64,000 nt of DNA from an uncultured virus (IMG/VR IMGVR_UViG_3300042356_001097) (IMGVR_UViG_3300042356_001097); one strand, 5' to 3'; shown: positions 132 to 42,005, numbered from the stretch's first letter. A program made the numbers and translations. The notes: a model not told the origin generated them from the letters alone.

Positions 132-321
132 TTTTCTCCCTTAAACTGAAAGTAAATGACGGGCCTTCCTCGTCATAATCTATAACTAAATCCTTATTAC
201 TTACATTGACATCCAAGAATCTAAGGGTCGGAACCGTTAGCTTTCCATGTTCTTCAAGTAGTGCAACTAGAACTTGATTCATACTAATTGAAGTAATTAA
301 ACCATCAACATCTTCTGTCAT
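106..321 (-). CDS. hypothetical protein (71 aa)
   Basis: ATGA-coupled to the dnaE stop codon. Confidence 0.7.
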   Translation of the reverse strand: MTEDVDGLITSISMNQVLVALLEEHGKLTVPTLRFLDVNVSNKDLVIDYDEEGPSFTFSLREKSAVESDSD

Positions 322-12500: not shown

Positions 12501-12606
12501 TATAAGAATCTTTTGAAGTAGATGCAGCTGAAGCTGCTGCTGCAGCATTTGTTTTTTCTAAATCAGCAGGAAGGCTATTGCCAACTTCATCTCCATAGTA
12601 TTTCAT
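9538..12606 (-). CDS. tail tip/central fibre with FN3 domain and C-terminal intramolecular chaperone (peptidase S74-like)
   Basis: FN3 signature (VSWTAS..GYVIRW..GLTPNTVYYWQVTA); G/T-rich beta repeats; SSRRYKTDI...LRPV...GLIAEEV...VNY followed by a coiled coil. Confidence 0.8.
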   Translation of the reverse strand: MKYYGDEVGNSLPADLEKTNAAAAASAASTSKDSYTEKITLRLVKDKQYKFWFKYKYEDPETKEVKLSDSSPIWKESFTIPNLTKAVKNLTLTSGFKSYGVKFDLDPTSVQEDVVILESLTSDFAVQNIVYVGTSTNVTIQASSYAPRWVKVRSRDRWDDLNISEATAGPVIILNSEIDTTKVPKAPTGVSVTPSIDPEDKSGFSIKIDVSWTASTDADTNGYVIRWSANNPANTANPLWEYGQVDGKATTTFSITGLTPNTVYYWQVTAKSPFNSISWDTTVPGQVASGSFGPVSDPNAPAGNVQLRSILSIGGKTADLFKIGTGITQSINTSTTITPTQTAGTYNGIILDRSTTNFGHNYWLNTGQFRVGSATSFLYWDGSDVYTTGKINATGGVFTGNLRVTTGSIIAGGTFAQDGTVSGARVVMQSGGLYAHSANGEQSVFIQASDGLIDARKGYIGGWTLNATSTTDGYIQGLNTKIESNGTITLGDTSGTLASIVRLSANDPTYRIWIGSQNASNAKFKVAKDGTLYATGAVLGLGAGSTIEGYATTGSLDLYTLKTVTSGINTRLTDAEGTLAGIPGTISTLSSGLATKNTIFVTTDSTQPFANRAGDLWINGGDQNTIWTAYAAGQNWTEKPNTKLALQTSLNAKLNASAYVVQSSVDNKISADAAGFEIYSGSSNSASGSGVKITSTGLLGYKNGVPTFTITSAGDATFAGELKAGSGYFGTDYTNGFAISGNELIGNPSPGGGVTQIILNSQTGAISGGKITGATLAGNTITGGTITGSTIQTSTSSTNVKLQNSGVDSLQVTLSGTTVGHIYGVLAGGTTSAIIMQGGSSAPSSSGNTFPRAYIGSSVVSIAADASTSILLNSIDNTTKLFGNGGIYTDTVGSFYMRSGDTTAATANMQIVSTAGTTFGRVARSTSSRRYKTDIETVSYPDESVKLLRPVKYHGIKDIERGDNTWYTGLIAEEVAEIPGLELLVQYNDEGQPEAVNYAGLSVVLAEVVSRILNRLDALEAK

Positions 12607-13928: not shown

Positions 13929-16900
13929 TCATATATGAATCGATCTACAGTCTATAGAAGTTGTAGGTGGCGAATCCTTATCATATGCGCTATTTATAGA
14001 TAGCACAACAAACTTGTTGGCAGCAAAGCCACTTGGTATAGGGGAGTCTTCTGAAGAGTATAGGCGGTTGGCAGGATAAGAAACCTCAATAACATCTCCA
14101 ATTTGAATTGTTGGGTTTAAGAAAGTCTGCATAGAGATAACGCTTTGTTGCTTAGACCACTGATCTTTCATCCAGTCAGCTAGGGCCTTTGCCTCGGTCT
14201 CTCTTTGAATCCATGTGGAGTCAAACCCTATCTGCTCCATTTTGTCAGCATCGCTAAGCGTTGGATCAATATACTCAAAAGAGTCAGAAGAAACAATTGA
14301 GTTTCCAACTACAACAAATTGCTTTTCTTCATTGTTAGCTAAGGCAGTAAAGGATCCAGTATTATTTAAAACGTATACATCCATTGAGAATGAATCTATT
14401 GAACTTCCAGCAATTGTTACATCTGAATTATTTATTAGTTGTGGATATAAAGGGAAACCTGGTGTTGTATACCTAGCTTTTATTCTTCTAAGCTCTCTTG
14501 CTACTGGCCCAAATTCTCTCAGCCAGGTAGAGCTTGTCTGTTTTGATTTATTATTAAATATAAAGTCTCCAAATGTTTTTGTTAACGCTGACTCTCCACT
14601 TAAAAATCCTTTATATGGATCAAAAGATAAGTCTCCAGCAAACTCTTCAGGAGTTAGTGCAGATGTGTAAATATAATCAAATGCTGAAATACCTTGAAGT
14701 GACATCAGTCCTACTTTTTGAGTTATAGAAATTGGATCTTGATCAACTACCACAAAAGATTTATTATTAACAGAAACTCTAAGGGTTAAGACTTTTCCTG
14801 GAGTTGGCTGTCCTGCAGCTACAGTAGGGGTTGAGTAGTTAGCACGAATGTCTAACCTATACATTCTTCCGCCATTTAGTCCAGTTATAATAGATCCGTC
14901 TTCATCTTTTTGTTGATCTTTTATTTTTACTGGCTTCCCGTCTACAATCTTATAAAAGTTAATTTCTCTAAAACTTTTATCTGCATTAGAGTTTTGAGAA
15001 GTTGCAATAGATAAATAGTATCCACTTGTATTATCTTCACTTAATGAAAATGCTAAACCTGCTATGGTTCTTTGTGCCCCAGTAGCACGGCTATCTTTAG
15101 GGTTTTTAAGCAAAGGGAAGTACATGTTTGTTCCAATAATAAAATTATCGCTTACAGTGCCATCCGCTTTAGAGTAGTTTGCTTTCATAGTTGCAAGACT
15201 ATACTTTGTATTCTGTATATAATCAGTTAAAGTTGGGTCGGTAGCATTTGGTTGTGATTTAACAACTGGTGCAAAAATTGTCATCATAGATCTAGGTATT
15301 GCATAAAACAGGTTGTTTTCATTCTTTACATCAGTCCCGTCAGCATTTTTAACTGGAACTTCTTGTAGTGTAAATACAGATTGATCGGTTGTAAATGATC
15401 CAGCTCCTCCTACGGTAGATTCCCACCTCTTTCCTGTCCATTCTGCCTGCAAAGAAGTTGTATCGGCACTATGCTTTAAATCGGCAACATCTTTAACAAC
15501 ATCAAAAGCATTTCTAGTTTTAATTCTATATTCACCTGTTGGCTTAAATGTATTTGGTTTTGCTAGTGCCTGCCCAGACTGTACATCTGATTCAGAAGTT
15601 ATCCACTTAGAAATAGTAGGCTGTCCTGGAATAGCAACTACTGGCTCATATATGTACTTAATTGCATCGTACTCAATTATCTCTTTTCCTAAAACTAGGT
15701 ATCCGCTATAAGAATATAACTGTTTAGCAGACGATGCTATTTGAACTGGTGAAAGTGTTACTACTCCTAAATCAGCACCTGGAGTTGTTGGAGGTGCTGC
15801 TAAATCTTTAATAAGTGCCGCTGCTCCCAAAACAACAACGGGAGATGTATAAATATTATCTCCTCCACCATCGTAGTTAGATGTAACTTGTGGGTTATAC
15901 ATAACCTTAATAGCCTTGACAGTGGGAATATTTTCAATTGCAATTGACGATATGTTTGCAAGCTTTCCATCTGAAGTATTGTTATATCTAAAAGATAATA
16001 CAGGTGTTTTTGTTTTATCAAATATATATCCTCTAGGATAGAACTGCAATATATCGTTATTATCAAACACTGCAATCATCTGAGTATCTTTGCATAGGTC
16101 TTGTATATGCTGCCACAATGTTTTTTTAGGATCGGTAAACCAATAGAACGGAGTTACTATTGAATTATCGCTTTCTACAATATTAAATTTATAGTTTGTA
16201 AATCCAACTGAGTCTAGCAGTCTTCTAATAATTGCAACTGAAGACATGTCTTTTGTTACAATGTCTGGAGGTTTAATGTACTGAAGCTCTCTTGCACCGT
16301 CTAGTGCATTTATTGAAATCTCCCCAAATTCATCTACCTCATACGAATCAAGATAAAAAACTCCAAGGTTTATTTTTTCTGATTCAACAGTAACAAATGG
16401 CCTAATTGTAATATTCTTATATAGACTTAACTTTTCTTTATTAAAAATATTAGCCTTGTCGTAATGCTCATAGGATCTATCATAGGCGTTTAAATTCATT
16501 CTTAATGAGTTTGCTGTAACATCTCCTACTGGAACTAGACCAGTTATAGAATCTGATGAGTTTTGAGATATATCAAATGACTCTAGTGAGCTTGTGACAT
16601 CTTTTACTAGCCTTGCTGATATTTCAATTATTCCTAGGTAACCCTCAACCTTATCAATAGAGTTAATCTGTAATTTTATTCCGCTTAAATCTACTCCTGC
16701 AGATACTGTAGCGGGCTCTGTAGTTGACCATGAGGTTCCATTATAATATAAATTAACTACTCCCGAATCTGGGCAAGTAGTTCCTGTGTAGATTGGCGCT
16801 GATTCTGCTCCAGCCAAATTGACAAGTTTAACTGTCCACGAAGTAGGTTTAGAGTGGGATGTCTCAAACTTAACAACAATTTTATTTGTAGCCGCTTTCT

Positions 16901-17348
16901 TTTCTGCTGGATAAGAAACTGATAAAATACAATTAGATAAAAGCATACCCGAGGATTTGGGTGTTACCCAGTATTTGTAAGCTGTCTTTGTGCTAGAGAA
17001 ATAAAGTCTTTTACCAAACTCTTTGCTAGATGCGTAGGTACTGGCACTTCCTATCCCAGTTGCGGCAAGAGTTGCAGGTACGCTTGGGTCTCCAAGAATC
17101 ATATATTGAACTCCAGCGACCTTTGGGCGTCTTGGATCGATGATACTGGTTATAGGAAATAGCTTCTCAAATGGCTTATATGCCTGTCCATCCTTGGTCA
17201 GGGTTGCCGTTATAACGCCTTCAGGAGCCGTTACAGCCGTTTTCAGGATCAAGTCGTTCATATTGTACTCAATGTGACATCCATTTACCATAGAGACATT
17301 TACTGATTTATTTAATGCGGTAGCGGTGGCTGGAGATACTGTTATCAC
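13929..17348 (-). CDS. minor tail / baseplate hub protein
   Basis: 1139 aa, second gene after the tape measure; C-terminal NPTIQIGDVIEV hub-like motif. Confidence 0.7.
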   Translation of the reverse strand: MITVSPATATALNKSVNVSMVNGCHIEYNMNDLILKTAVTAPEGVITATLTKDGQAYKPFEKLFPITSIIDPRRPKVAGVQYMILGDPSVPATLAATGIGSASTYASSKEFGKRLYFSSTKTAYKYWVTPKSSGMLLSNCILSVSYPAEKKAATNKIVVKFETSHSKPTSWTVKLVNLAGAESAPIYTGTTCPDSGVVNLYYNGTSWSTTEPATVSAGVDLSGIKLQINSIDKVEGYLGIIEISARLVKDVTSSLESFDISQNSSDSITGLVPVGDVTANSLRMNLNAYDRSYEHYDKANIFNKEKLSLYKNITIRPFVTVESEKINLGVFYLDSYEVDEFGEISINALDGARELQYIKPPDIVTKDMSSVAIIRRLLDSVGFTNYKFNIVESDNSIVTPFYWFTDPKKTLWQHIQDLCKDTQMIAVFDNNDILQFYPRGYIFDKTKTPVLSFRYNNTSDGKLANISSIAIENIPTVKAIKVMYNPQVTSNYDGGGDNIYTSPVVVLGAAALIKDLAAPPTTPGADLGVVTLSPVQIASSAKQLYSYSGYLVLGKEIIEYDAIKYIYEPVVAIPGQPTISKWITSESDVQSGQALAKPNTFKPTGEYRIKTRNAFDVVKDVADLKHSADTTSLQAEWTGKRWESTVGGAGSFTTDQSVFTLQEVPVKNADGTDVKNENNLFYAIPRSMMTIFAPVVKSQPNATDPTLTDYIQNTKYSLATMKANYSKADGTVSDNFIIGTNMYFPLLKNPKDSRATGAQRTIAGLAFSLSEDNTSGYYLSIATSQNSNADKSFREINFYKIVDGKPVKIKDQQKDEDGSIITGLNGGRMYRLDIRANYSTPTVAAGQPTPGKVLTLRVSVNNKSFVVVDQDPISITQKVGLMSLQGISAFDYIYTSALTPEEFAGDLSFDPYKGFLSGESALTKTFGDFIFNNKSKQTSSTWLREFGPVARELRRIKARYTTPGFPLYPQLINNSDVTIAGSSIDSFSMDVYVLNNTGSFTALANNEEKQFVVVGNSIVSSDSFEYIDPTLSDADKMEQIGFDSTWIQRETEAKALADWMKDQWSKQQSVISMQTFLNPTIQIGDVIEVSYPANRLYSSEDSPIPSGFAANKFVVLSINSAYDKDSPPTTSIDCRSIHI

Positions 17349-17349
17349 T

Positions 17350-17817
17350 TTATACCTCTTCTAAAGAAAGAGATACATCCCAAAATTCTTGCGGGACTGA
17401 AGCTAGGCTAGATCTAACATTTCTTTTAGATATGCTAAAAGTACATGATGTAAATGAGGCTAGGACAATTTCATCTCTTGCTGTAACAGCGTTATAAGAT
17501 ATTTTAATTTTAAATGTGCCCTTACCTTTATTTAAATAGAATGCTCTTATATCTTCAGCACCCATTCCGCCATCTACTGTTAAGGTGCTATATGTTGGCA
17601 AAGCGTTCCACGCTGTAGATATTTCTTTTTTGTCGGCAATCCAGATTTTTCTCAATGATCCGTTTGACATTCTTTGAGTTTTTTCAATTCTATTTAGATC
17701 AAGGTTAATTGCTGTTCTATTATGCTCAGATACTTTAGTCCAAGTTGGGGTTGCTGCATCTGTTCCTGTATCAAAATACAGAATGGACCCTACTGGTAAA
17801 GTTAAAGGATATCCCAT
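17350..17817 (-). CDS. distal tail (Dit-like) minor tail protein
   Basis: Directly after the tape measure; RMSNGSLR...WDVSLSLEEV. Confidence 0.65.
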   Translation of the reverse strand: MGYPLTLPVGSILYFDTGTDAATPTWTKVSEHNRTAINLDLNRIEKTQRMSNGSLRKIWIADKKEISTAWNALPTYSTLTVDGGMGAEDIRAFYLNKGKGTFKIKISYNAVTARDEIVLASFTSCTFSISKRNVRSSLASVPQEFWDVSLSLEEV

Positions 17818-20800
17818 TAGCTAATCCCCACATTCATTTTAGGACCTAAAGCAGATGCTGCTCGGCTGTCCATGCTCTTTATGGCTGTTACTGTTTGTTG
17901 AGTTACCATTCTTGACAATTGATTTAAATCTCCGTCGTATCCGTTAATATTATTTGTAATATTATATGTTGCTCCACCCATTGTAGCATTATTAGCGTTT
18001 GGATTAAAGGGGTTCATGTTAGCTGGAACAACTGCTTCATTCTTATGAATCATGGCAAGCATATCAACAGGTACGCTATTTATTCCAGAATCAAATGATG
18101 GAACAGACATTTTTGCAGAGTATGTTGGATTTACATATCCGCCACTTGCAAAGCCAGAAGGCCACAGATTTTTTATCTCTTTTAATGACTTTGCTGTAGC
18201 TCCAAACATCTGTCCATAAACTTGTCCTGGCAATGAATATATACTAGGCAACATCTTTAATAGATCGTCTCCGCCTAATACTTGTGGGAACTCCATGCTA
18301 CCCTGTGCAGAGCCATTTCTTATCGCCCCTTCACCTAGGAAATTTTTAAGCTCGGATATCTTTTTATCAATTCCAAACATTGGAAGCTCTTCACCGAGTT
18401 TTGCTTTACCTATCATTGCGCTATAGAGTGCGGCTATATGTGGGTTAGTTGAAAAATAAGTACCTAGATCTTTTTGTCCAGTTCTCCAGGCATCTCCTAT
18501 TGTTCCTCTTACTCCCTTAAATAACTTAATGGCTTCGTCTGGAAGCAAGTCGTAAAATTCTTTTGCATAGTATTCATTAAACTTTGTAACATCAGAAAAA
18601 TCAATTTTTGGATATTTCTTTTTTAATAGCGTTTCTCTTTGTGCCTGAATAATTTCCCAAGTTGAGGAAGAAGTTACTCCCTCTTTTAATCCTTCAAGAG
18701 CAGCCTTAGCAGATGATGGGTTAAAGCTAATTCCAGTTTCTGGAATTTTTATTGAAGATAGATCCATCTTTGATAAAGCCTGCATTGCCTTAGCATCAAT
18801 GTCTGCCATACCGAAAGATTTCATTTCTGGTGTAAGATGTGAAACTGCTCCCGCTACTTTAGGTACTGAGGAAGATATTCCCTTTCCTGCCCCACCGCCA
18901 ACTGGCAATAAAGCCATTGAAAGAAATTCTGTTTTAGACTTTTTACTAAACGGGGTTGTAATGTCAAAGCCTAATACATTCTTAACTACAGAGTTTGCAG
19001 CACTTGATAAAGTTTTACCGAACCATTCCATTCCCATTCCAAATGGGTTTGGCATTGTTGGTGAACTAGAGCCATGCTTGTGCCCAACTTTTCCGCCTTC
19101 ATGAAACTTGCCAGCATTTAAATCATCAAAGAATGAAGAGCCGAATTCTTTTTTAGCTTTTTCAACTGAGTCTGCCTTTATTACCCATTCCCCATCAGAT
19201 AGCATTGCAGGAATTGAATCAGATGTTTTTGTACCTGGCCCACTGACTCCACCGCCGTTGTCATAATTATTAACCTGACCACCCATTGCCTTTTTCTCTG
19301 CAGGAGTAATTTTTTGTAGTTGTACGTTAAACTTATCATCAACTACTTTAAACTGAGCAACAGATCCATCTTTATTTGTAAGAGTAAATTGAGTATCTTT
19401 TGCAAAATCTTGTTGCTTTGCATACTTCTTAACTATTTCTCTGTCTGATGTAGGACCAAAACTAGTATCCCAGCCTTTCTCTGTAATGGTTTCTCTTATA
19501 GGAACACCTAGTTTTTCACCAAGAGCAACTGATGCTGATCCTCCTTGGAATGGGTTTCCGTATGAGCCGTCGCCGCCCTTGCCTGGCTTAAACGCATCTT
19601 TACCTACCATTATTGTAACTTCACCGTTTGTTACAATAGTCTTTACTGAGCCAAGGCCGCTTTCAAGATTTTTCATAAGCCTTGCGCCTAGGTCTATATC
19701 TTTTAATCCATCAATCTTTATTCCTGCTTTTTGTGCAGCGTCTCCGATAGCAGCAAGCTGTTCTCTTGCAACTCTACTTGCTTCCCACTTCTTTCTTTCT
19801 GCTGGCTCCATACTAGAAAGCTTGATTTGATAATCTAACATTGAAGAGTTTACTGCATCTATTGCAGATTCTTGTGTTGCAATTGATTTTGTAAGATCTC
19901 CTAATTTTTCTCCCGCAATTGCAGCATTGTCAGAAAGCTTTTGCTGCTTCTTTTGCATTGCCTCAATCTGCTTAAGAAGTGGAGCATTCTTTACATCTCT
20001 TGCATTTTCTTCATTCTTTACTTGTGCATTAAATTGAAGTTGGCTTTGTAGGCCTTCCATATCAAGGCTTGCTTGTTGTGCTCCAGCGGTATTTCCTGTT
20101 GCGATAGCTGCGTCATACTCTGCTTGCTTTTTAGCAATCTCTCTAGCAATGTCGCCTTCTTCTTTTGCGGCAGTTAGGGCTTTTATTCTTGCATCAGCAA
20201 GCTTATTATTAAGATCAATCTGCTTTTGAAGAGCAGACATTTTTTCTCTATCAGAGATTTGATCTGCAACCTTTTGGCCTTTTGCTGCTCTTTCGTATGC
20301 TGCTTGACGCTGCTTGTCTCTATCCAACTTGGCATACTGCTTTTCTAGTGCTCCGCCTTTGGCTCTATTAGCAGACTCGATTACTTTACCTAATGCTATT
20401 TGAAGTTGGTAAAGATCATTTGTTTGAGCAGCTGTTAAGTTTCTTAAGTCACCAGTATATCCCTTAACTTGAATTCTTGTTTTTTGCCAGAGTGAGAGTG
20501 CTGTGTCCTGCTCACTAACTATCTGTCTAATAGATGGATCTATCTTAGCCATTTCATCTACAACTTCTCTAGTTAGAACTGCTTGGCTTTGAACATCCTT
20601 GTTAATTGCTTCAATTGCTTCTTCTTCTGCTTTTAGCTTGGCCTGCTTTTCATCTCCCGATGAAAAATATCTTCCCTCTTTAGTTGCCAGGGCACGTTCC
20701 TTTTTAACTGCATCTGCCTGTCTTTTTTCTACATCTGTTGATAAGGCCATTAGTGCAGTATTTAATTGATTTGCTTGCTCTGTAGGATCACGATCAGTAG

Positions 20801-23800
20801 CCATTGCAGCGTTTAGGCTTTCTAAAGCTGATGCTGCTGCTGTTGCAGTATCTTTAATTTCATTAAACTTACCTTTTGAACCTACTGTAACCTTAGACGC
20901 AATTGATGCAAACTCAGAAGATGCATACATTGTATATATCTTTTTAGACGCTTCTTCAGCAGATACTCCCATTGCAATCAGTTGCTCTTTTAATCTTATT
21001 GCAAGAGCTTCTTGTTCATCTGCACTTGTCTTGTTAATTAAAAGAACTTGATCCGAGTAGTTATCCTTAACTTCTTTTTTAAGCTTCTTATACTCTTCGA
21101 TAGTAACATTGATTGGAGTTCCAGAACCCTGCATGCTTTCGTATAAAAGCGTGTTTCTTTCTTTAAGAGCTTTTGCATTAGCAATTGCTTCTTTAATCTT
21201 ATCGTTAAAGTTTGTAAATTTAAGTCCTGCTTTTTCTGCTTGTTCAGCAGTCATTCCGTAACCTAGAGCATTTAAGCGCATTGATTCTTGATGAGCCTTG
21301 TATCTGTTTATAGCAATTCCTATAGCCAGTGATCCAGCTCCAACTATAAGATTTAATCTTGTAAGTGATTTTGCTGCGAAGGCTCCCATCTTTGCAAACT
21401 TTCCACCTTCTAATGAAGCTTTTTCAAGCCTCTCTCCATACTTTGTCAATACCATTAGGTCTTTACCGTTAACAGTAACTCCCTCTAAGGCTTTAGTTGC
21501 TCCTATTGGAGCTGTAAGCTTACCCTTGCTTGTCATTGGAGCTTTTGCTCCACCACCGAACCCGCTGCCTCCCATGCCAAGCATAGATCCGAGCATCATT
21601 CCTATGAAATCTCCGCCTGGAATACCGCTTGCTTTTCCTGCTGCTTGACCACCGTATGCTCCTAGCATTTGCATAAGCATCATCTTAATCATTCCGCCCA
21701 TATTGTATCCTTGAGCAATTCCATATTTATTACTTGGAACAATGCCGCCTGAGTTTCTAGGAACAAATAGTTCTGGACCCTTTTCTCCAACAATGTAAGG
21801 CTGTCCTGAATTAACTGGGCCGCCCATTTCTCTTTTTTCTAAACCAAATATAATTTTCTTTAAAGATTCTGTAAGCGGGGTATCCTTTTTAGAATCCCAA
21901 TTTAAATATTTGTTTCGCAAAATGTCTTTATCAATTGGAGAAAGTTGTTTAATTATGTTTCTGTCTCCAATAAGATCTGAAGCGGCTGATCTTATTACAG
22001 AGTCTAGTACGTCTGGCTCAAGTCCGTTCTTTAATTTACCATCTGGCATCTTTACATATCCGTAAGGTTTTTCTTTTGCTAGTGCTGCCGCAAACTTGTC
22101 ATAGAATAATTTTTGAGTATGCTTTCTTAAACCTGTGTTTGCAAATAGCTTGTCGGCCATTTCAATAGATAGAGAGTTCACTCCCCATGGAGCTGACTCG
22201 TACATACTTGGCTTAGGTGCTCCTGTTGGACCAAAACCTGCACCAATTCTATGCATTGCTCTACCCTTAAGAACATTTCCGATCATTCCACCAATGTTAA
22301 ATCCGTTTGAATCATTCTTAAAATCGTTATCTGATAGGCTTGCAGCGTGACCTTTTTGTCTACGCTTTAATTCATCTGCTGCAATCATTTTAGCAATAGC
22401 TGCTGGTGTCATTTGTTTCTTTGGAGTAATTTCTATTGATGAATGAAGAGCATGAAGATCTCTATAATTTTCTCTTCTTGCATCAGATAGTCTTTGAATC
22501 ATTGCATTGTAGACAACCGTCTCTTCTGGATTTAAATCAAATCTAGATATTGTCTGCTTTAGTCTTGGAAGAACATTTTCAATTTCATCCAACATTCTTT
22601 GATGATATTGATCTGCCGTCATACCCTTTGGGATATCTGAAGTTGCTTCAGCAAAGAATTTCTTTGTGTTACTTCCCTTTACTCCAAGAAGGTTGACAAA
22701 TGCTTGATGCTTAAATGAAGGCATTGTTGCAGAATAATCTGAGTCTCCAGAGGCTGTGTTAAACACACCTGAAGTTCCGCCGTCTGCAACACGATTCCCT
22801 CCTAAATTACCCCTAGCTAAGTCTTTGTCTCCACGCAATGCAGATAAAGATAATTGCTTAAAGTATGTATCTTCATCAAATGTGTCAGGCATATTTGCAA
22901 AGTCTGTGTCGTACTTAGACTCTAATGCTAATACTTTTCTGCGGCCTGCTGGATCTGTTGGGTCTTTAATTACAACAACTCTTTGGTTGGGAGCCTTTAA
23001 CCCATTCTCAAGATCATTAGTAATTTCATTAAATCTTGATTCAGCAAGTGCTCTTTTTTCGCTTACTACTGGTTTAACAAAAAACTTTTCTCCGTTTCTA
23101 GAATATATTCCACCTATTCCACTAACTGGGAAGCTGTGGCCCTTGTCGTCTGATTGTAGTTTTTCATCATACGTAGTTACCTGATCTTTGCTGTATCTAG
23201 AATTTTTAACCGCTTGATCTGCTTTTTCCATGGCAGCTCTTGCTGCTCTCTGGGCTTCAACCTGCTTAATAGTTTTAGGCATTCCCAAGAACATTGCTTT
23301 GCCGCCGCCAAATAATCTTTGTGCAAACTTTCCTGGAATTTCTCCACCTTGTGCAAATCGTCCTTCTATTTCTCCGCCTTTATTTGCAGTTTTTGCTATC
23401 TGACCAAACCCAAGACTTTTAGAAGCTACTCCTCTTCTCATTAATTTAAATAGTTGTGGGAGAGAAATAATTCCCTTCCTTCTATCTAGAATTGCTTGTG
23501 GAACTGTTGTGCCAAATCTTTTTAGCCAAGACCTGTCCTGTAGTGCTATTGCTTTATCTGTCATAAGAACTTCGTCTGGAAAATAAGAAAATGATCTTTG
23601 TCCCTTGATGGATAAAGCCCTTCTTACATCATTTGCTGCTGTATTTAAATCTGCTTCTCCCCAAAATGCCTGTCCAAAGTTTCCAGCAGATTTATATCCC
23701 CATTTAGCATCTGGGCTAGTGTGTGTGCTGTGCAAGTTTGTTGCAGAGACCTTTCCATATTTATCTATTACCCATTTGCCGCTTTTTTTCTCAAAGCCTA

Positions 23801-26800
23801 AATCTTTAAATAGCCTATCAACAAAATCTTTTCCGCCAAACTTATCTGGATTATTATTAATATAATCTAGCATGGCTGGAGTAGGTCTAGCGTCGCTAGC
23901 ACCAATTCTTCCAACTGCGTCTGTGTTAAGTTGTCTTCGGTTCTTTGGATCTACATTAGAGTTAGCATCTCTTACAAGCTTAACCGCAGTATTAAATTGT
24001 TTTTGTCTTATCTCTCTCCATACCTTTTTGTCTATAGTTCCATTTTCACCCATTGCTCCGTCAGGTTTAGGTAACATTGCTTGTCTATAGTTTTCGCTTG
24101 CTATTTCAACCGCCTGATCAATAGGTATACCCTTATTGTTTAAAACAGTTGCATCATGCATTACGCTTCTATGAGCTAATTCTTTTTGCCATCCTCCAGG
24201 TCCGCCTGGTTCAAATGCATTTTGATATCTTTCTTGCAAACGTAGAATTTTTTTCCAAGTTCCCCAGTCAGGATTTCCACCTTCAGATAATCCAAATCCA
24301 GTATTGCCTGGACCTCCATTTAATGAATACATTAAAGGCATATCTTTTTGTGCAATATCTGCTGGAATGACAGCCTCTCCTGGTGTCAATACAACAGGAA
24401 CCTGCCCGCCCCTATTCCTATATACTGGTCTTCCACCAAGTAGGTTTTGAATAATTGGCATATTGGCTTCTGTGCCTGCTTTGTTAATTACAAAAGATCC
24501 TTCTTCAGCCGTTGTATGATAAGTATCTGTGTTTCCAGTTCCTGGAACTATACCGCCCTTATTAAATTTAGGCTTTGTTGTTTCAATATTATATCCTGCA
24601 CCTGAAGTTCTAACTCCGCCCAGTGCTCTTGCAATTCTATCCACAAGAGTTTTTGTAGGACCCTTATGAAACATTTCTTTCATGTTAGATTTTCCAGTAG
24701 CTGGATCGACCACTGGTTGGGATGTAAGTGGAACGGTTGTTAAGTTTGCAGTTCTTCCCATAGTGCTTGCAGTTAATGCAGTAGTTTCCGCAAGCATTGC
24801 TTCAACTGTTGCATTTAATTGAAGTATCTTTGCTCTTGCTTGATCTACTGTTATTTTGCTTGCTTGAAGTTGCTTAACAATTGCTGCAGTTTCTTGTGCC
24901 GCTAAAGATGTGATTTCGGTAAACTGTGGAAGCAAGGCTTGGTAAGAATCTGAAAGGCTTGCTGTAACTGTACCTGTTGACATAACTTCTGCTTTTAATA
25001 ATTTAAGTTCCGATTCAGATTGCATTGCAATTGCAGCAGTCATAGCATGCCATTTTGCTGCTTCTTGTGCGACAATTCCTGTTGATATTCCATTTACAGA
25101 AGTTACTCCAGGTATCCTAGGCAGATCTGAATCCATATAAGACTGTGGGTTACTTCCAATTCTAATGTTTACTGGCTTAGCTCCTGGGACTGTTCCAAAG
25201 ATTGTTCCCATTTGTTCTGTAGCTGTTGGTGTAAAGTGAGACATATCTCTTGTGTAAGACTTACCTACTAATGGATTATTCTTATCAACAATTCTTTGTC
25301 CGCCTGGTGTTCCCGCTGATATTACTGACCCTGCAACTGTTGAAATTCCTGGTTGCACTGCAACTTTTGCTGAGTTTGCTTTTATTTCAAGATTATCAAA
25401 TGATGCTGCAAGAGTGTTTATTGCATTTGTTAATACAACTGTTGCCTCTGTGTCTGAATAGAATGATGTAGCAAGGCCTTTTGCCGCAGCGTCTGCTGCC
25501 ATAATTTCTGGTGTTAGAAGTTTAAATCCTTGACCACCTCTAGCTAATTGTCTTAGATGAAAAATTCCCTTGATAACATATCCAATAAAGTTACCCATTA
25601 CACCAGCCAACATAATAAGAGGTCCAGATACTGCGGTTATTCCTCCTAGTACATTTAGGAATGTCTTTACTGGCTGAGGAAGCTTCTGGAAGAATTTAAT
25701 AATTCCATCTACTACTTCTAAAACCTTTGTGCTAATTGTTAAAAATTGATTTCCTACTGCTGCAAGATCTGCTTGAACTGAAGCAAGGGCTCTCTTAAAT
25801 TTACCAGAGGCTGACTCTGTCATCATTCCTAATTCTCGGGATGATATGTTTGCAAGATCTGTTGCACTTGCCTTCATGAGATCCATTACTTGAAGTGTCT
25901 GAGATCCTTCTTTTCCTAAGTTTTCAAATAGGGCAGACATTCTTGCATACTGGAACTTACCAAATAGCTGCTCAATTGCTCTTGACTTGCTTAACGGATC
26001 TAAATTATCTAATGCGCTCTGCAGTTCAACAATTGTTGCTGTTAAGTTACCTGCGTTAGATGTTACAATTTGATCAATGTTTATTCCAAAGCCCGTAAAC
26101 ATTTCCTTGGCAACCTTTGTTGGGTTAATAAGAGAAGCCATTGCTGACTTGATTGCGTTAGCACCTTCTGATGCGTTTACTCCGCCCTCTTTCATTGCAG
26201 TTAAATACAATGCTAAATCTTTTACGTCTCCACCTAGTGACTGTACTACTGGGCCTGCTTTAGGAATTGCTTCAACTAAATCCGCAAGGCTTGTTGAGGT
26301 TTGGTTTTCAACTGCGTTAAGGAAGTCAATTGATTGCGTTAATTCATCTGTACTGGACTTAAATGCATTTTGAATAGCAAGAGTTGCCTTCATTGCTTCT
26401 TGTCTATCAACTTCTCCAAGCACTGCAAGTCTTGATGTTTCTTTTGTTGCCTTGAGTAGCGCCTCGCCCTGTTGCCCTGTTGCGGCTAAATCTGCAGCAA
26501 GTGCGATTGTATCTTTGAATGCAATACCATATGACCCTGCAATTTCTCTTGCAGTGTCCGAAACATCTTTTCTTACTTTTGCAAGCTCTGTTGCAGATAC
26601 GGCAGATAGACCACCATAAACCTTTGTTAGTCTTACTAACTCTTGATCTGCTTCTCTAAACGCTTTTTGTGCAGCCATTCCAAATGCTGCTAAAGGTACT
26701 GTTAGTCCTACTGTTAACTGACGACCAGCCCACTGAGTATTTTTACCCCAGTTAATAAGTTGATTGGATCCATCAAGCATAACCTTATTCATAATGGCTA

Positions 26801-27272
26801 GCTCTTGTCTTGCAATTGCTGTTCTATTTTTTACTTCATCAAGGCCTTTTGCAACCATTACGTTGTACTGCATTAAGCCCTGTGCGTTTTTACCAATAGG
26901 TTGGATGATGGCCTGCTCCATCATTACCTGTTGTTTTGCAAGATCTCTAACTAAAGTGCTTGTTTTTCTTGTATGCCCCTGCCAGGTCTGGAAGTAGTTG
27001 TTTAGCTTTAGTTGACCTCTGTCTAGGTTTCTACCAAACTTTTCTACATCTGAAGTAAGGGATACGAAGTGTTGCGAGAACTGACCTGTTGATGTAAGCG
27101 TTGTTGCAAACGCTTTATTCATTACTGCAATTTGATTTGCAAGCTTGGCGTTAGTTCCCGCTGTAACTTCTTGTAATTTTAAGAGTTGGGCAGTAGTCGC
27201 AGCCAGTTGGGTTCTTAAGCCCGTAAAGTCTGCGTTGGCGGTAATATTAGTGGTGATTAAATTATCTGCCAT
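17817..27272 (-). CDS. tape measure protein with inserted cargo domains (3151 aa)
   Basis: Follows the tail chaperones; N-terminal TMP core (GLTVPL, ENQTSTSL, EGGVNASEGANA), TM-like segments and GGxVxGPG repeats. Confidence 0.92.
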   Translation of the reverse strand: MADNLITTNITANADFTGLRTQLAATTAQLLKLQEVTAGTNAKLANQIAVMNKAFATTLTSTGQFSQHFVSLTSDVEKFGRNLDRGQLKLNNYFQTWQGHTRKTSTLVRDLAKQQVMMEQAIIQPIGKNAQGLMQYNVMVAKGLDEVKNRTAIARQELAIMNKVMLDGSNQLINWGKNTQWAGRQLTVGLTVPLAAFGMAAQKAFREADQELVRLTKVYGGLSAVSATELAKVRKDVSDTAREIAGSYGIAFKDTIALAADLAATGQQGEALLKATKETSRLAVLGEVDRQEAMKATLAIQNAFKSSTDELTQSIDFLNAVENQTSTSLADLVEAIPKAGPVVQSLGGDVKDLALYLTAMKEGGVNASEGANAIKSAMASLINPTKVAKEMFTGFGINIDQIVTSNAGNLTATIVELQSALDNLDPLSKSRAIEQLFGKFQYARMSALFENLGKEGSQTLQVMDLMKASATDLANISSRELGMMTESASGKFKRALASVQADLAAVGNQFLTISTKVLEVVDGIIKFFQKLPQPVKTFLNVLGGITAVSGPLIMLAGVMGNFIGYVIKGIFHLRQLARGGQGFKLLTPEIMAADAAAKGLATSFYSDTEATVVLTNAINTLAASFDNLEIKANSAKVAVQPGISTVAGSVISAGTPGGQRIVDKNNPLVGKSYTRDMSHFTPTATEQMGTIFGTVPGAKPVNIRIGSNPQSYMDSDLPRIPGVTSVNGISTGIVAQEAAKWHAMTAAIAMQSESELKLLKAEVMSTGTVTASLSDSYQALLPQFTEITSLAAQETAAIVKQLQASKITVDQARAKILQLNATVEAMLAETTALTASTMGRTANLTTVPLTSQPVVDPATGKSNMKEMFHKGPTKTLVDRIARALGGVRTSGAGYNIETTKPKFNKGGIVPGTGNTDTYHTTAEEGSFVINKAGTEANMPIIQNLLGGRPVYRNRGGQVPVVLTPGEAVIPADIAQKDMPLMYSLNGGPGNTGFGLSEGGNPDWGTWKKILRLQERYQNAFEPGGPGGWQKELAHRSVMHDATVLNNKGIPIDQAVEIASENYRQAMLPKPDGAMGENGTIDKKVWREIRQKQFNTAVKLVRDANSNVDPKNRRQLNTDAVGRIGASDARPTPAMLDYINNNPDKFGGKDFVDRLFKDLGFEKKSGKWVIDKYGKVSATNLHSTHTSPDAKWGYKSAGNFGQAFWGEADLNTAANDVRRALSIKGQRSFSYFPDEVLMTDKAIALQDRSWLKRFGTTVPQAILDRRKGIISLPQLFKLMRRGVASKSLGFGQIAKTANKGGEIEGRFAQGGEIPGKFAQRLFGGGKAMFLGMPKTIKQVEAQRAARAAMEKADQAVKNSRYSKDQVTTYDEKLQSDDKGHSFPVSGIGGIYSRNGEKFFVKPVVSEKRALAESRFNEITNDLENGLKAPNQRVVVIKDPTDPAGRRKVLALESKYDTDFANMPDTFDEDTYFKQLSLSALRGDKDLARGNLGGNRVADGGTSGVFNTASGDSDYSATMPSFKHQAFVNLLGVKGSNTKKFFAEATSDIPKGMTADQYHQRMLDEIENVLPRLKQTISRFDLNPEETVVYNAMIQRLSDARRENYRDLHALHSSIEITPKKQMTPAAIAKMIAADELKRRQKGHAASLSDNDFKNDSNGFNIGGMIGNVLKGRAMHRIGAGFGPTGAPKPSMYESAPWGVNSLSIEMADKLFANTGLRKHTQKLFYDKFAAALAKEKPYGYVKMPDGKLKNGLEPDVLDSVIRSAASDLIGDRNIIKQLSPIDKDILRNKYLNWDSKKDTPLTESLKKIIFGLEKREMGGPVNSGQPYIVGEKGPELFVPRNSGGIVPSNKYGIAQGYNMGGMIKMMLMQMLGAYGGQAAGKASGIPGGDFIGMMLGSMLGMGGSGFGGGAKAPMTSKGKLTAPIGATKALEGVTVNGKDLMVLTKYGERLEKASLEGGKFAKMGAFAAKSLTRLNLIVGAGSLAIGIAINRYKAHQESMRLNALGYGMTAEQAEKAGLKFTNFNDKIKEAIANAKALKERNTLLYESMQGSGTPINVTIEEYKKLKKEVKDNYSDQVLLINKTSADEQEALAIRLKEQLIAMGVSAEEASKKIYTMYASSEFASIASKVTVGSKGKFNEIKDTATAAASALESLNAAMATDRDPTEQANQLNTALMALSTDVEKRQADAVKKERALATKEGRYFSSGDEKQAKLKAEEEAIEAINKDVQSQAVLTREVVDEMAKIDPSIRQIVSEQDTALSLWQKTRIQVKGYTGDLRNLTAAQTNDLYQLQIALGKVIESANRAKGGALEKQYAKLDRDKQRQAAYERAAKGQKVADQISDREKMSALQKQIDLNNKLADARIKALTAAKEEGDIAREIAKKQAEYDAAIATGNTAGAQQASLDMEGLQSQLQFNAQVKNEENARDVKNAPLLKQIEAMQKKQQKLSDNAAIAGEKLGDLTKSIATQESAIDAVNSSMLDYQIKLSSMEPAERKKWEASRVAREQLAAIGDAAQKAGIKIDGLKDIDLGARLMKNLESGLGSVKTIVTNGEVTIMVGKDAFKPGKGGDGSYGNPFQGGSASVALGEKLGVPIRETITEKGWDTSFGPTSDREIVKKYAKQQDFAKDTQFTLTNKDGSVAQFKVVDDKFNVQLQKITPAEKKAMGGQVNNYDNGGGVSGPGTKTSDSIPAMLSDGEWVIKADSVEKAKKEFGSSFFDDLNAGKFHEGGKVGHKHGSSSPTMPNPFGMGMEWFGKTLSSAANSVVKNVLGFDITTPFSKKSKTEFLSMALLPVGGGAGKGISSSVPKVAGAVSHLTPEMKSFGMADIDAKAMQALSKMDLSSIKIPETGISFNPSSAKAALEGLKEGVTSSSTWEIIQAQRETLLKKKYPKIDFSDVTKFNEYYAKEFYDLLPDEAIKLFKGVRGTIGDAWRTGQKDLGTYFSTNPHIAALYSAMIGKAKLGEELPMFGIDKKISELKNFLGEGAIRNGSAQGSMEFPQVLGGDDLLKMLPSIYSLPGQVYGQMFGATAKSLKEIKNLWPSGFASGGYVNPTYSAKMSVPSFDSGINSVPVDMLAMIHKNEAVVPANMNPFNPNANNATMGGATYNITNNINGYDGDLNQLSRMVTQQTVTAIKSMDSRAASALGPKMNVGIS

Positions 27273-27281
27273 ATGTATATG

Positions 27282-27946
27282 TTACTCTATAGAGTATCCT
27301 AATCCTGCTCCAATGCCGAATCCAGCTTCGCTGGCAAATGCTCCTTGTAGTCCAACAACATCATCTGCTGATGCGTTTATTCCAAGTGCTCTTCTTCTAA
27401 CATCTTCGAAAGACGACTCCTCCTTATTTTCATTACTGCTTTCATTTAACTCAACACCTTGAATCGAAGCTAAGAACTTTCTTTTCTCTGATTCCGTTTT
27501 TTGCATTGACTTAAAAGTCTGGACCATCTCTGGCATTGAAAGATTATCTTCTAGTTCTTCGTAATTTTTCCAATTACCTAAAAGAAATACTTCCCCTTCT
27601 AAAGCGGCTAGATCTAGTTCTGACCAGCCAGTACCGCTGCCGCTAGTAGGTTTGGGTCGTCCATCTTAATTCCTCCGCAGATCTCAAGGATGCGGTTGAT
27701 TGTTGGAACGTCAAGTGTGTCTTCAAATGCGTCTTTATCCTTTACCAATTCAGGCAATTGCTTTTCTAGGGCTACTGCACATGCTTCGATAAGAATCGTG
27801 AGTGTTTCGTCTTCTGATGTTACTTCTTGTGTCTTCTGAATGACCTTCATAAACTTACGAAGCTCTTTAATTGTTAAAGGCTTAAGTTTAACGGTTGCGC
27901 CATTTTGTAGCTGAATTTCTTCAACATCGTATACTGTTGTTGCCAT
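27282..27946 (-). CDS. tail assembly chaperone GT (programmed -1 frameshift product)
   Basis: Slippery C CCA AAC at 27656-27650; the -1 frame reads ...GWSELDLAALEGEVFLLGNWKNYEELEDNLSMPE into the 27282-27536 ORF. Confidence 0.8.
27614..27946 (-). CDS. tail assembly chaperone G
   Basis: Between major tail and tape measure; AGGAGG RBS. Confidence 0.85.
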   Translation of the reverse strand: MATTVYDVEEIQLQNGATVKLKPLTIKELRKFMKVIQKTQEVTSEDETLTILIEACAVALEKQLPELVKDKDAFEDTLDVPTINRILEICGGIKMDDPNLLAAAVLAGQN

Positions 27947-28055: not shown

Positions 28056-28817
28056 TTATAGCCAGGTGCGGTCTACGATTGTACCGTATTCTGCGCCTGC
28101 GTCTGCTGATGCTCCTGATGGAAGCAAACGGAATGTTACTGGGAATGTTGATGCTGCGTTACGAGCCAAAGAGAACTGTGACTGTTGTACAGAAAGAACA
28201 CGACGAGCATAATATACACGCTCTGTCTTTGATGATGCTGCAGTTGTTGGAGCTTGTCCGACTGCAACTAATTGACGCTCAACTGGAGCTTCTCCTAGTG
28301 CACCTGCTGCAAGACCTAGCTTCTTACCTGATTCAGTAAGAGTTGCTGCTGATTGTCCGAATACGCCAAGAACGTTCTCAAGAGTACCTTCTGCGAATTC
28401 TGTTGCAATCATAACTTCCATTGTCTCCTTGAATAGCTTTGCTGAGTCAAGAAGCTGATCTACTGTTACTGAACCGTATGATGGGTTGTAAGTAATTTGA
28501 AGACCGTTATTTGTGTAACCTACGTTACGGTATGCAGCTCCTGTAGTTGCTGATGCTGCTCCTGATGCGTCTACGTCTACTCCGTTAAGAGTTGTGATGT
28601 ATGACTCACCTGCTACATAACCGACTACTGGTGTTCCAGAGCCTGCTGTACCGTTCTTAAATGCTGGAACTGTCTTGTTGCGTCCAGTTGCACCTGATAC
28701 TGCTGTGCCTGGAATCAAGTTTTCTACGTATCCTGATGTAGTAGAATCTTCTACTGACAAGAATAGTGGTGACGCACCAACAAGAATATTTCTAGCATTA
28801 CCTGTGTTTTGTGCCAT
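28056..28817 (-). CDS. major tail protein
   Basis: NILVGA, GYTNNGL..Y.P, VDQLLD, FPVTFRLLP; strong RBS and a downstream terminator. Confidence 0.85.
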   Translation of the reverse strand: MAQNTGNARNILVGASPLFLSVEDSTTSGYVENLIPGTAVSGATGRNKTVPAFKNGTAGSGTPVVGYVAGESYITTLNGVDVDASGAASATTGAAYRNVGYTNNGLQITYNPSYGSVTVDQLLDSAKLFKETMEVMIATEFAEGTLENVLGVFGQSAATLTESGKKLGLAAGALGEAPVERQLVAVGQAPTTAASSKTERVYYARRVLSVQQSQFSLARNAASTFPVTFRLLPSGASADAGAEYGTIVDRTWL

Positions 28818-40692: not shown

Positions 40693-41769
40693 CTAAAAGA
40701 ATATATATAAATCGCCAGCTGCAGTGCCAGTTGGTGGCGTTCCAGATGTGTTATAGAATATTTTATTTGAGTTTGCAGTATTTGTTCCGTTTGAATATGC
40801 TGTAGTTGCAAGGTTTATATTTGCACCGAGTGCTACTGGGGCGTTGTTAATTGATATTGATGAGTTTACAAGCATAGCATTAGTAATTGATCCTGGTGAT
40901 GGGGTTCCGACTGGTCCGTCCGCTCCAGTGTCGCCTTTAGGTCCCTGAATACCTTGTATACCTTGTGTGCCCTGTGCGCCTGTGTTACCAGTTAAGCCTT
41001 GTATTCCCTGAATACCTTGTTCTCCCGTGTCACCTTTTGGTCCTTGGATACCTTGTGGACCTAAATTAGAAACTGTAATAGAGCCAGCCATTGATGAGTG
41101 GTATTCGCAAGCATAATAAAGTTGAGGGGCATTAAATGGAACTTCAAATATAATTGTTCCATTATCCCGTGTTCCTGAAGATAATGTTACTCCAGTAGAA
41201 TAAACATTTCCTGCGCTATATGCACCTGAAACTGTTTGAATCCAAAACGGATGTCCGACTGCATTAACATTAATTACATATCTATGCCCCCGAATAAAAG
41301 ATAAAGTTGGATTAGCAGAACCATTAATTGTATATGAACCAGATCCCGAGTTTGTAACGGCTAAAGTTATTCCGCCTGAAGCTCCAGTTGCACCAGTGTC
41401 TCCAGTATCTCCTTTAGGACCTTGAATACCTTGTGGGCCTTCTGGGCCAACGATCTGGCCAGCGGATGTCCAAGATGTGCCGCCCCATATATATAGATCT
41501 CCATCGGACTGTACAATTCTTGCATCGTTTGAGCTGTTGCCAGTTGTTGGTAGGGCAGCTACATTTACTACTGATGCTTTAACATTAATAGATGTTCCTT
41601 GTGGCCCTACAGGCCCTACAGGCCCTTGTGGACCCACTTCTCCTTGAGGTCCCTGAGCACCTGTTGTAATTCTTTGAAGGGTCCATGCAATTCCGTCCCA
41701 AATCCATGTGCTTCCACCAGCGGTGAATAATTGATTCAACGATGGGCTATTTGGAAAATCGATTGCCAT
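40693..41769 (-). CDS. collagen-like fibre with cupredoxin-like domain
   Basis: MAIDFPNSP...W.WDG..W; G-X-Y repeats; GHPF...YYACEYHSSMAG; C-terminal GDLYI. Confidence 0.75.
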   Translation of the reverse strand: MAIDFPNSPSLNQLFTAGGSTWIWDGIAWTLQRITTGAQGPQGEVGPQGPVGPVGPQGTSINVKASVVNVAALPTTGNSSNDARIVQSDGDLYIWGGTSWTSAGQIVGPEGPQGIQGPKGDTGDTGATGASGGITLAVTNSGSGSYTINGSANPTLSFIRGHRYVINVNAVGHPFWIQTVSGAYSAGNVYSTGVTLSSGTRDNGTIIFEVPFNAPQLYYACEYHSSMAGSITVSNLGPQGIQGPKGDTGEQGIQGIQGLTGNTGAQGTQGIQGIQGPKGDTGADGPVGTPSPGSITNAMLVNSSISINNAPVALGANINLATTAYSNGTNTANSNKIFYNTSGTPPTGTAAGDLYIFF

Positions 41770-42005
41770 TATATCTCCCTTATTCCAGCTATTGCTTTTG
41801 CTTCGGCTTCTGTTAAGCCTAAAGAGGTTAGCTTGTCTATAGCAGACTGTAAGTTGTCAACAACCGATTGGTCGGCAACTGGAATCTGCGAAAGAATTTC
41901 ATCTACCTGAATAGAGACCTCTTCATTTACTGATATTTCTGCCTCTGTATACTCACGTATTGTTGTCTCACCAGTCTCGTAATTAAATTCTATAATATCG
42001 CTCAT
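41769..42005 (-). CDS. small fibre-associated chaperone-like protein
   Basis: N.ETGETTIREYT.AE...AIDKL.SLGLT..EA; TAATG-coupled start at 42005. Confidence 0.6.
   Translation of the reverse strand: MSDIIEFNYETGETTIREYTEAEISVNEEVSIQVDEILSQIPVADQSVVDNLQSAIDKLTSLGLTEAEAKAIAGIREI

Follow-up and report, generated by a model that had tools for sequence, protein, structure and literature searches.

Cassette exchange at glycine-glycine junction modules in an uncultured phage's tape measure protein

The tape measure protein (TMP) described here is encoded by a 64,000-nucleotide stretch of DNA (the window) from the uncultured virus IMGVR_UViG_3300042356_001097, a phage which is known from metagenomes only. 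Its gene is a single open reading frame (ORF) for 3,151 amino acids that occupies positions 17817..27272 of the minus strand, stop codon included (ORF list and translation); residue i begins at 27272-3(i-1), and all TMP features given below lie on the same strand. Among related phages, cassettes of this protein are swapped, dropped, acquired or multiplied at modules, with crossovers located within short peptides that end in two glycines (GG). It is likely that the protein is a single mosaic TMP in which the ruler is interrupted by two payload regions fenced by exchange modules, and the modules may additionally serve to anchor the protein in the baseplate hub and to direct limited cleavage. An earlier note on this DNA had proposed a polyprotein with cargo domains bracketed by recurring xxxGG motifs; its observation is confirmed, and its interpretation is partly supported.

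The twelve xxxGG motifs were all found where the earlier note had placed them. Identified by the residue number and window position of the first glycine of the pair, they are FNKGG (906, 24557), RNRGG (955, 24410), LSEGG (998, 24281), ANKGG (1299, 23378), FAQGG (1309, 23348), FNIGG (1661, 22292), REMGG (1817, 21824), YNMGG (1859, 21698), KAMGG (2664, 19283), YDNGG (2673, 19256), FHEGG (2726, 19097) and FASGG (3044, 18143). GG dipeptides occur 44 times in the TMP compared with 27.0 +/- 4.5 in 1,000 shuffled sequences, and the more specific aromatic-x-x-GG pattern occurs 8 times against an expectation of 1.76 +/- 1.30, a count that is attained by 0 of 2,000 shuffles. Comparison with relatives confirms that the motifs lie at the borders of segments, which comprise the variable cassette A (residues 1000-1298; 23379..24275), domain B (residues 1326-1655; 22308..23297), the conserved domain C (residues 1663-1812; 21837..22286), the small variable domain F (residues 2561-2658; 19299..19592) and the variable cassette G (residues 2728-3039; 18156..19091). 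They are preceded by an N-terminal ruler core (residues 1-895; 24588..27272) that is 81-98% identical across relatives.

Residues 880-3151 retrieved 433 relatives, and the analysis used the best 120 of these, which range from 1,787 to 4,190 residues. BLASTP of the window TMP against the 119 others yielded 212 internal alignment ends which were taken as breakpoints. These cluster at residues 990-1009 (24 breakpoints), 1270-1309 (26), ~1669 and ~1803 (4), 2470-2640 (34), 2690-2820 (74) and 2960-3046 (47). The median distance between a breakpoint and the nearest of the twelve motifs is 14 residues, and 51% of breakpoints are no more than 15 residues away from a motif, compared with 11% for random motif sets (P about 0.001); since the relatives are not mutually independent, the breakpoints were left in place for this test and only the positions of the motifs were drawn at random. 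Individual proteins illustrate the same behaviour. P0003 is identical as far as EKKAMGG and divergent thereafter, and P0006 and P0015 are alike up to LNGGPGNTG, with identity returning from GGEIPG in junction J1300 (residues 1295-1325, which contain ANKGG, FAQGG and FGGGK; 23298..23390). Beyond the FNIGG separator (residues 1658-1662; 22287..22301), P0030 and P0065 are devoid of residues ~1669-1803.

Among the 111 relatives that have the N-terminal core, the identity of cassette A is bimodal, being at least 60% in 17 and below 35% in 94, with none in between, and for cassette G 3 relatives reach 60% or more, 15 fall at 35-60% and 93 are below 35% or lack it. The identity of G does not track that of the core (r = -0.16). 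In 24 relatives the core is at least 88% identical yet A falls below 35%, and the same applies to G in 30. Nine pairs with cores that are 81-92% identical have a cassette A in common at 95% identity or more. Site A is occupied by 4 sequence clusters and site G by at least 10, which range from 43 to 1,243 residues; site G is empty or short in 24 relatives, and long relatives carry multiple site-G cassettes which are parted by KFHKGG, GFHTGG or KFANGG. Domain F falls into eight clusters and is absent or short in 32 of the 120 proteins.

Exchange is also seen at the DNA level between the window and a relative, locus L003, which share ~80% identity in the core, ~40% in cassette A and ~55% in F and the following junction J2673, and 96-100% identity at residues 2731-3030 in cassette G. 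Identity switches on the left at AAGTTTCAT (KFH)-x-GGCGGA and on the right just past GFAxGG. This swap is a genuine instance of recent mosaicism within a TMP. A survey from 2023 detected a mosaic signal in TMPs yet was able to confirm a genuine recent case in none (PMC10684548). The suggestion of the earlier note that the GG motifs are module-exchange junctions is thus strongly supported by the replacement, loss or expansion of A and G in relatives, and the cargo swaps that it expected exactly at the GG motifs of related TMPs are found as crossovers at the motifs with residue and nucleotide resolution. Invariance of the segments among relatives was named by the earlier note as contrary evidence; A and G vary, and B and C are conserved.

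Several of the GG motifs are the ends or remnants of a TMP module of ~55 residues. FAQGG, FNIGG, YNMGG, FHEGG and FASGG look like further ends or remnants, with weak links to the full module in profile-profile comparison. The module consensus (alignment A5) is xxAxGGxVxGPGGxTSDxIPAMLSNGEYVxxAxSVxxYGxxFLDAINxGKFxxGG, and two types can be told apart. Type I follows the pattern FxxGG-x-V-x-GPG-xx-SD-x-IPA-x-LS-x-GE-x-V, which is followed by two short helices and KFxxGG, and type II follows GG...VGExGPExFVP[R/K]NxGG, of which the window copy is REMGGPVNSGQPYIVGEKGPELFVPRNSGG at residues 1814-1843. Type I is represented by two tandem modules, J906 (residues 903-945) and J955 (residues 952-996), which lead into LSEGG (residues 994-999; 24285..24566 for the whole array), and by the canonical J2673 (residues 2660-2727, KAMGG through KFHEGG; 19092..19295), which is recognised by profile matches. 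The type II module is J1817 (residues 1813-1846, KREMGGPVNSGQPYIVGEKGPELFVPRNSGGIVP; 21735..21836), whose profile matches the T5 TMP, pb2. A further junction module, J3044 (residues 3040-3092, GFASGG through VPVDMLAMIHKNEAVVPANM; 17997..18155), coincides with the breakpoints at residues 2960-3046, and in relatives of ~2,780 amino acids the corresponding region directly follows a single type I module.

BLAST self-comparison of the TMP reveals no internal repeats, short-query BLAST and single-family hidden Markov models (HMMs) give weak cross-matches between the window modules, and the first module HMM recovered the J2673 copy alone, so that profile-profile comparison was needed to link them. 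By this approach J906 matches J955 with a probability of 88 (E 3.4e-6) and J2673 with a probability of 75 (E 2.5e-5), the link between J955 and J2673 reaches a probability of 25, and J3044 is weakly linked to J955 (probability 29 across 7 columns); three control segments give probabilities of 1 or less.

The module is by no means restricted to the relatives of this phage. Among 50,697 GenBank phage records, 482 contain type I, at a total of 560 places that lie almost without exception in annotated TMP genes, with hosts that include Mycobacterium, Gordonia, Pseudomonas, Burkholderia and Vibrio, and in 6,316 of 1.84 billion representative proteins (E <=0.001); type II is found in 161 phage records. 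Between two and seven copies per protein occur in 146 of the 149 best diverse module carriers, which were ranked by total score and hence in a manner that favours multi-copy proteins. A GG opens the module in 90% of carriers (background 21%), and hydrophobic-x-x-GG closes it in 74% (background 11%). In 9 of 13 diverse, unrelated giant TMPs that were scanned, SLT, SLT_3, NlpC/P60, M23 or HAD-phosphatase domains are situated between module copies, and such enzyme domains are often 2-44 residues away from a copy. Neither Pfam nor NCBIfam contains a model for the module. The idea that type I corresponds to LysM was dismissed after 0 of 13 module sequences matched LysM or any consistent Pfam family (E <=10). 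Host-directed domains embedded in TMPs are already known, and the literature that was accessible yielded no account of a fencing module or of cassette exchange at such a module.

Domain B is the segment for which a fold can be proposed. Its AlphaFold2 model has a mean predicted local distance difference test score (pLDDT) of 74.5 and a predicted template modelling score (pTM) of 0.70, and it has the bilobal organisation of a kinase. The earlier note had recommended Foldseek on each segment, and for B all 48 matches listed are kinase-like, the best being CtkA (E 2.4e-3, probability 0.96, template modelling score about 0.3). Across 28 aligned sequences five residues never vary, namely K1400, E1411, D1484, N1489 and D1497, and their order and spacing suggest that they represent the catalytic lysine, the glutamate, the Asp-x4-Asn loop and the metal-binding aspartate. 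By fold and residues, B would therefore resemble an atypical kinase of the CotH / CtkA / PI3-4K / HipA group, with a predicted kinase activity. Pfam kinase and CotH models give no match at E <=10 for the B segment or at E <=1 for the whole protein, which implies that by sequence B belongs neither to CotH nor to another named family, and the B profile retrieves only noise from the sequences of the PDB. CotH of Bacillus cereus (5jd9/5jda) and CtkA of Helicobacter pylori (3akk) share 9-15% identity with B, which differs from them in being embedded in a virion protein. B forms one sequence cluster in 119 of the 120 proteins; it is also found in 50 of the 72 related loci, at identities as low as 33%, and in 8 of the 149 diverse carriers. 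No kinase insert in a TMP was found in the accessible literature.

Domain C forms one sequence cluster in 118 of the 120 proteins. A, C, F and G have no match in Pfam, G and A plus B have none among phage records by tblastn, and cassette A gave no lead in the Atlas (0.77). Free-standing versions of G or B were encountered, within the length classes searched, only as TMP fragments on short contigs. Two candidate functions suggested by motifs were rejected: G as an ADP-ribosyltransferase of the R-S-E type, identified by eye, has an arginine that is not conserved in A2, an unusable model and no Pfam match, and A as a lytic-transglycosylase-like domain has no match in Pfam, the Atlas or phages. 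In relatives, site G harbours OmpA domains in 3 of 13 proteins scanned. Two of the same 13, the long relatives P0058 (residues 3119-3159) and P0053 (residues 3074-3114), contain at this site a sub-threshold match to the catalytic loop of ABC1/APH kinases (E 0.002-0.004), which may denote a second, different kinase-like cassette. The delivery of several effectors that the earlier note had envisaged accordingly finds a counterpart in one kinase-fold segment, which is itself not swapped, and A, C and G have no recognisable function; its description of four segments as globular and unlike a tape measure is shown for B alone, G having been modelled without a usable result.

The ORF is, on the basis of its profile matches, a TP901-type TMP. 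Pfam PF10145 matches residues 238-438 (98.3 bits, cut-off 33.2), TIGR01760 matches residues 192-547 (103.6 bits, cut-off 28.8) and PHROG TMP families cover residues 13-850. The N-terminal core is the sole part of the TMP with relatives among isolated phages (~36% for Streptomyces phages): megablast against isolated phages gave no match, and in tblastn against phage records only residues ~41-686 match, at ~36% identity, in 334 records that belong mostly to Streptomyces and Gordonia phages. Within the core there is a hydrophobic segment at residues 541-570 (25563-25652; hydropathy peak 1.88 at 541-559). A second hydrophobic region comprises YNMGG, a glycine- and methionine-rich hydrophobic stretch (residues 1856-1910) and a hydrophobic segment at residues 1970-1988 where hydropathy peaks at 1.69 (21309..21707 in total). 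It is followed by what appears to be a second ruler (residues 1991-2560; 19593..21302), in which 51-66% of each 100-residue window consists of A, E, K, L, Q and R and 5-6% of G plus P, a composition that favours helices and is reminiscent of a coiled coil. The end of this coiled-coil-like stretch ahead of F (residues ~2470-2560; 19593-19850) is itself the site of a breakpoint cluster, and GKGG (2566) and FQGG (2577) are located just beyond it. The C-terminal end (residues 3093-3151; 17820..17996) is kept in relatives and is presumed to be a hub plug by analogy with T5, JBD30 and Douge.

Clues to what the module does come from cultured phages. The T5 TMP pb2 is cut after R1127 into pb2* and pb2C, between a hydrophobic stretch and an enzyme-bearing fragment, and the 42-43 residues preceding the cut then anchor in a crevice of the opened hub, which they do only once cleavage has made a new C-terminus (Linares et al. 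2023, PMC10038345). This is the sole TMP cut known to have been mapped. In pb2 (AY543070, 12122-15781) the context of the cut is NANSFVPR/AEGGMMYPGVSYQMGEHGTEVVTP, where the slash marks the cut, i.e. FVPR/AEGG, and the J1817 type II profile matches at residues 1110-1132 (3.6 bits) and 1126-1151 (4.8 bits), thus flanking it. Only 0 and 1 of 500 shuffles attain the two scores (0/500 at 4.8 bits); five profiles were tried, and the evidence for the T5 link is therefore moderate. The window counterpart, LFVPR/NSGG, is found at residues 1835-1843 (21744-21770), and the basic residue at position 1839 is an arginine in 113 and a lysine in 7 of the 120 family copies. A putative processing site after R1839 (FVPR1839/NSGG) is the best candidate in the window TMP. 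The likeness between the proteins extends over FVPR/AEGG...GExGxE..V.P in pb2 and LFVPR/NSGG and REMGG...GEKGPELFVP in the window, a match which is weak but located exactly at the cut, where in T5 a membrane-active part is separated from a C-terminal part that bears an enzyme. Unlike the window TMP, which has roughly twelve GG peptides and inserts that add up to ~1,500 residues, pb2 is cut once to give a single small C-terminal fragment, 92 residues long, and the order of hydrophobic segment and module differs. The pb2 residues 1128-1151 that have been described as a metallopeptidase motif fall on the GExGPE position of the type II module. The zinc-peptidase-type His-x-x-Glu of T5 (GEHGTEVV) does not occur in the window, where GEKGPELF has a lysine in place of the histidine, as does the family. 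With the motif positioned on a widespread module and a lysine in this place, it may be a structural signature rather than a peptidase site.

Type I modules can be traced to other well-studied tails. The A5 profile matches gp16 of the mycobacteriophage Douge (8zdo_S) in two copies at residues 964-1012 and 1412-1460 (E 5e-31) and the TMP of the Pseudomonas phage JBD30 (8rk3_A) at residues 1019-1062 (E 2e-9). Residues 1022-1066 of JBD30 gp46 are predicted by its authors to form a hook made up of two helices plus a short beta-hairpin, which they liken to the T5 anchor, and they speculate that the protein is cut at R1066 (Valentova et al. 2024, PMC11445458). Like the window copies the JBD30 module is of type I, and it is situated between a hydrophobic Ala/Gly-rich stretch and the plug (relative MP22), but there is a single copy and no insert. 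Lambda gpH (NC_001416) also lacks an insert; it contains a module-like stretch, KFHFATGG...GEFVFTKEA...RGYATGG, at residues 731-783 between FATGG and YATGG. This falls within the glycine-rich region in which gpH is cut to give gpH* and gpHC by a protease and at a site that are both unknown according to the 2025 Ur-lambda paper, which leaves residues ~690-817 out of the resolved structure (PMC12617516). T5 pb2 and lambda gpH are not among the matches of the type I profile to E 10; among the sequences of solved structures, the whole TMP has no match and the family profile matches Douge alone. The mycobacteriophages TM4 (mt3) and Barnyard (Rpf motif) have host-directed domains in the ruler which are dispensable for assembly (Piuri and Hatfull 2006, PMC1796659). 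Like the window TMP, these proteins and Douge gp16 (PMC13033339) thus carry host-directed domains embedded in the ruler, but their inserts are small cell-wall hydrolase motifs.

TMPs in general ride in the tail lumen and leave it ahead of the DNA. It is proposed that the window TMP is a ruler made up of the TP901-type N-terminal core, two hydrophobic segments, a helical stretch of ~570 residues and a C-terminal plug, which would be interrupted by payload region 1 (residues ~900-1860), with the variable cassette A, the conserved atypical-kinase domain B and domain C, and by payload region 2 (residues ~2560-3095), with the small domain F and the variable cassette G. The hydrophobic-x-x-G-G peptide that every border carries would represent one of the two ends, or a remnant, of a module of ~55 residues which is old and occurs very widely. 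As judged from T5, JBD30 and lambda, this module may adjoin a maturation cut and hook the new C-terminus into the opened baseplate hub; if it is the part next to the cut and the hook, the inserts would travel in the tail lumen and exit ahead of the DNA. Processing, if there is any, would most likely take place at few sites rather than at all twelve, with FVPR1839/NSGG as the best candidate. The location of the A-B-C block between the hydrophobic segments 541-570 and 1970-1988 would fit a domain that uses ATP and lies in a cytoplasmic loop, and site G, which in relatives holds OmpA-type wall-binding domains, would be near the end that exits first; both suggestions are speculative.

The proposed mosaic ruler has to be weighed against three other accounts. 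The idea that the modules are purely structural, acting without cleavage as hooks to the baseplate hub or tube or as register-keepers around bulky inserts with one anchor per insert, and that exchange is a by-product of their repetition, is possible but not probable. It agrees with the T5 anchor of 42-43 residues in the opened hub crevice (PMC10038345), with the hook that the JBD30 authors predict for the module (PMC11445458) and with the widespread occurrence of tandem and multiple copies, but is at odds with the observation that the T5 anchor works only after cleavage has created a new C-terminus. Alternatively, the GG peptides may be mere flexible hinges, with breakpoints gathering at domain borders where viable recombinants are joined. 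Glycine-rich linkers are commonplace, selection for viable chimeras accounts for crossovers in 9-15 shared nucleotides, and the 34 breakpoints at a border without a listed motif are in keeping with this account, which is nevertheless unlikely: the peptides have a fixed aromatic or basic position, evident from the excess of aromatic-x-x-GG, and are not merely glycine-rich, and they belong to a module that is kept from actinobacterial to proteobacterial phages, a degree of conservation not expected of a plain hinge.

The polyprotein in its fullest sense, in which a protease of the phage or of the host would cut the TMP at each GG junction and so free A, B, C and G as separate effectors upon injection, is quite improbable. 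A short peptide is conserved at all borders, cleavage of the TMP in T5 and in lambda takes place within or close to homologous modules rich in glycine, and the module fences enzymes in other TMPs. Against this, the window contains no protease candidate, the known TMP cuts are single and near the C-terminus, with the T5 cut preceding the GG, and among the GG-adjacent basic residues tested in the family only that at J1817 is strictly conserved. Cuts between the hydrophobic segments and the ruler would, moreover, dismantle a protein that is presumed to form a channel. The only protease-type domains among the 47 ORFs of the window are the prohead S78 protease and an S74 fibre chaperone, and a host protease for the TMP is possible.

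Several observations also weigh against the mosaic ruler with its anchoring and limited cleavage. With regard to exchange, 34 of the 212 breakpoints (residues ~2470-2640) lie at a border without a motif listed in the earlier note, B and C are a conserved family core and not swapped cargo, the AlphaFold2 model of G is unusable (mean pLDDT 41, 13 sequences), and J1817, J3044 and J1661 are only weakly similar to the other copies in the window. With regard to cleavage, the T5 cut is three residues ahead of the GG rather than after it, the match to T5 is weak (4.8 and 3.6 bits), the lambda gpH match is likewise weak (independent E-value 0.03-0.09), and there is no GG-specific or other candidate protease among the 47 ORFs of the 64-kb window, contigs carrying P0001 reaching 109 kb. 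Of 72 related loci, 67 have a TMP frame that is open over 2,169-3,880 codons through the position probed, and the remaining 5 were probed off-position. The module is seen in no solved structure, the portions built being residues 1658-1699 in Douge, the last 33 residues in JBD30 and residues 818-849 in lambda. Finally, deletion of an embedded motif of 114 residues in TM4 shortened the tail by ~20 nm (PMC1796659), as would be the case for a plain ruler, and inserts may therefore count as ruler and need not be separate cargo.

The genes of the window form one phage block that is on the minus strand throughout and comprises, among others, those for portal, prohead protease, capsid and a tail protein with an Ig domain, a pair of small ORFs, the TMP gene, genes for minor tail proteins and for fibres, and a block for replication. 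The Ig-domain protein (28056-28817) and the two small ORFs (27282-27946) are upstream of the TMP gene and a minor tail protein (13929-17348), whose gene is the candidate for the baseplate hub, is downstream (PHROG labels), and the TMP thus appears to be placed as expected between tail tube and chaperone genes, the latter assigned by position, and the distal tail genes. Base 17817 belongs both to the stop codon of the TMP and to the start codon of the ORF that follows it (17350-17817, 155 amino acids), an overlap within 17815-17819 that suggests translational coupling. Promoter-like sites in the window show no excess (36 compared with 40.9 in shuffles); there are 19 terminator-like sites where 10.5 are expected, none of which interrupts the TMP ORF on its own strand, and a tRNA search of the window was negative. 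Other genes, all on the minus strand, encode a DnaE-type DNA polymerase III alpha subunit with PHP, NTPase, finger and HhH domains (318-3599) next to a DnaB-like helicase and a DnaG-type primase, two fibre proteins with collagen triple-helix repeats (40693-41769 and 42005-44311, the larger with six stretches), a protein that resembles tail fibres and contains the N-terminal domain of a major tropism determinant (Mtd_N; 62456-63769; E 1.6e-11) and a fibre or spike protein of 1,022 amino acids (9538-12606), whose C-terminal Peptidase_S74 intramolecular chaperone domain is the sole self-cleaving element found among the tail genes.

Of all phage proteins, TMPs enter the cell envelope first. A more far-reaching proposal is that siphophage TMPs have in the module a universal 'payload bay' unit which combines a hub hook, a processing signal that is cut beside a conserved basic residue as in FVPR/AEGG of T5 and an in-frame docking point for cargo, that giant TMPs are injected and processed trains of enzymes, here including an atypical kinase that would act prior to phage gene expression, and that lambda gpH* results from a cut at the same module; this generalisation is doubtful. 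How and at which sites TMPs are cut has been a question since lambda gpH*, for which the 2025 Ur-lambda paper gives neither site nor protease (PMC12617516), and the alignment of a conserved, widespread module with the only mapped cut provides a concrete consensus for phages in culture, among them Douge, JBD30 and many mycobacteriophages. At the nucleotide level, the swap with L003 offers a clean example of recent mosaicism within a TMP, of which the 2023 survey could confirm none (PMC10684548). A kinase-fold domain borne by the virion would represent a new type of ready-made tool for host takeover or counter-defence, and for engineering purposes the modules mark spots where foreign domains might enter the tail without breaking its assembly.

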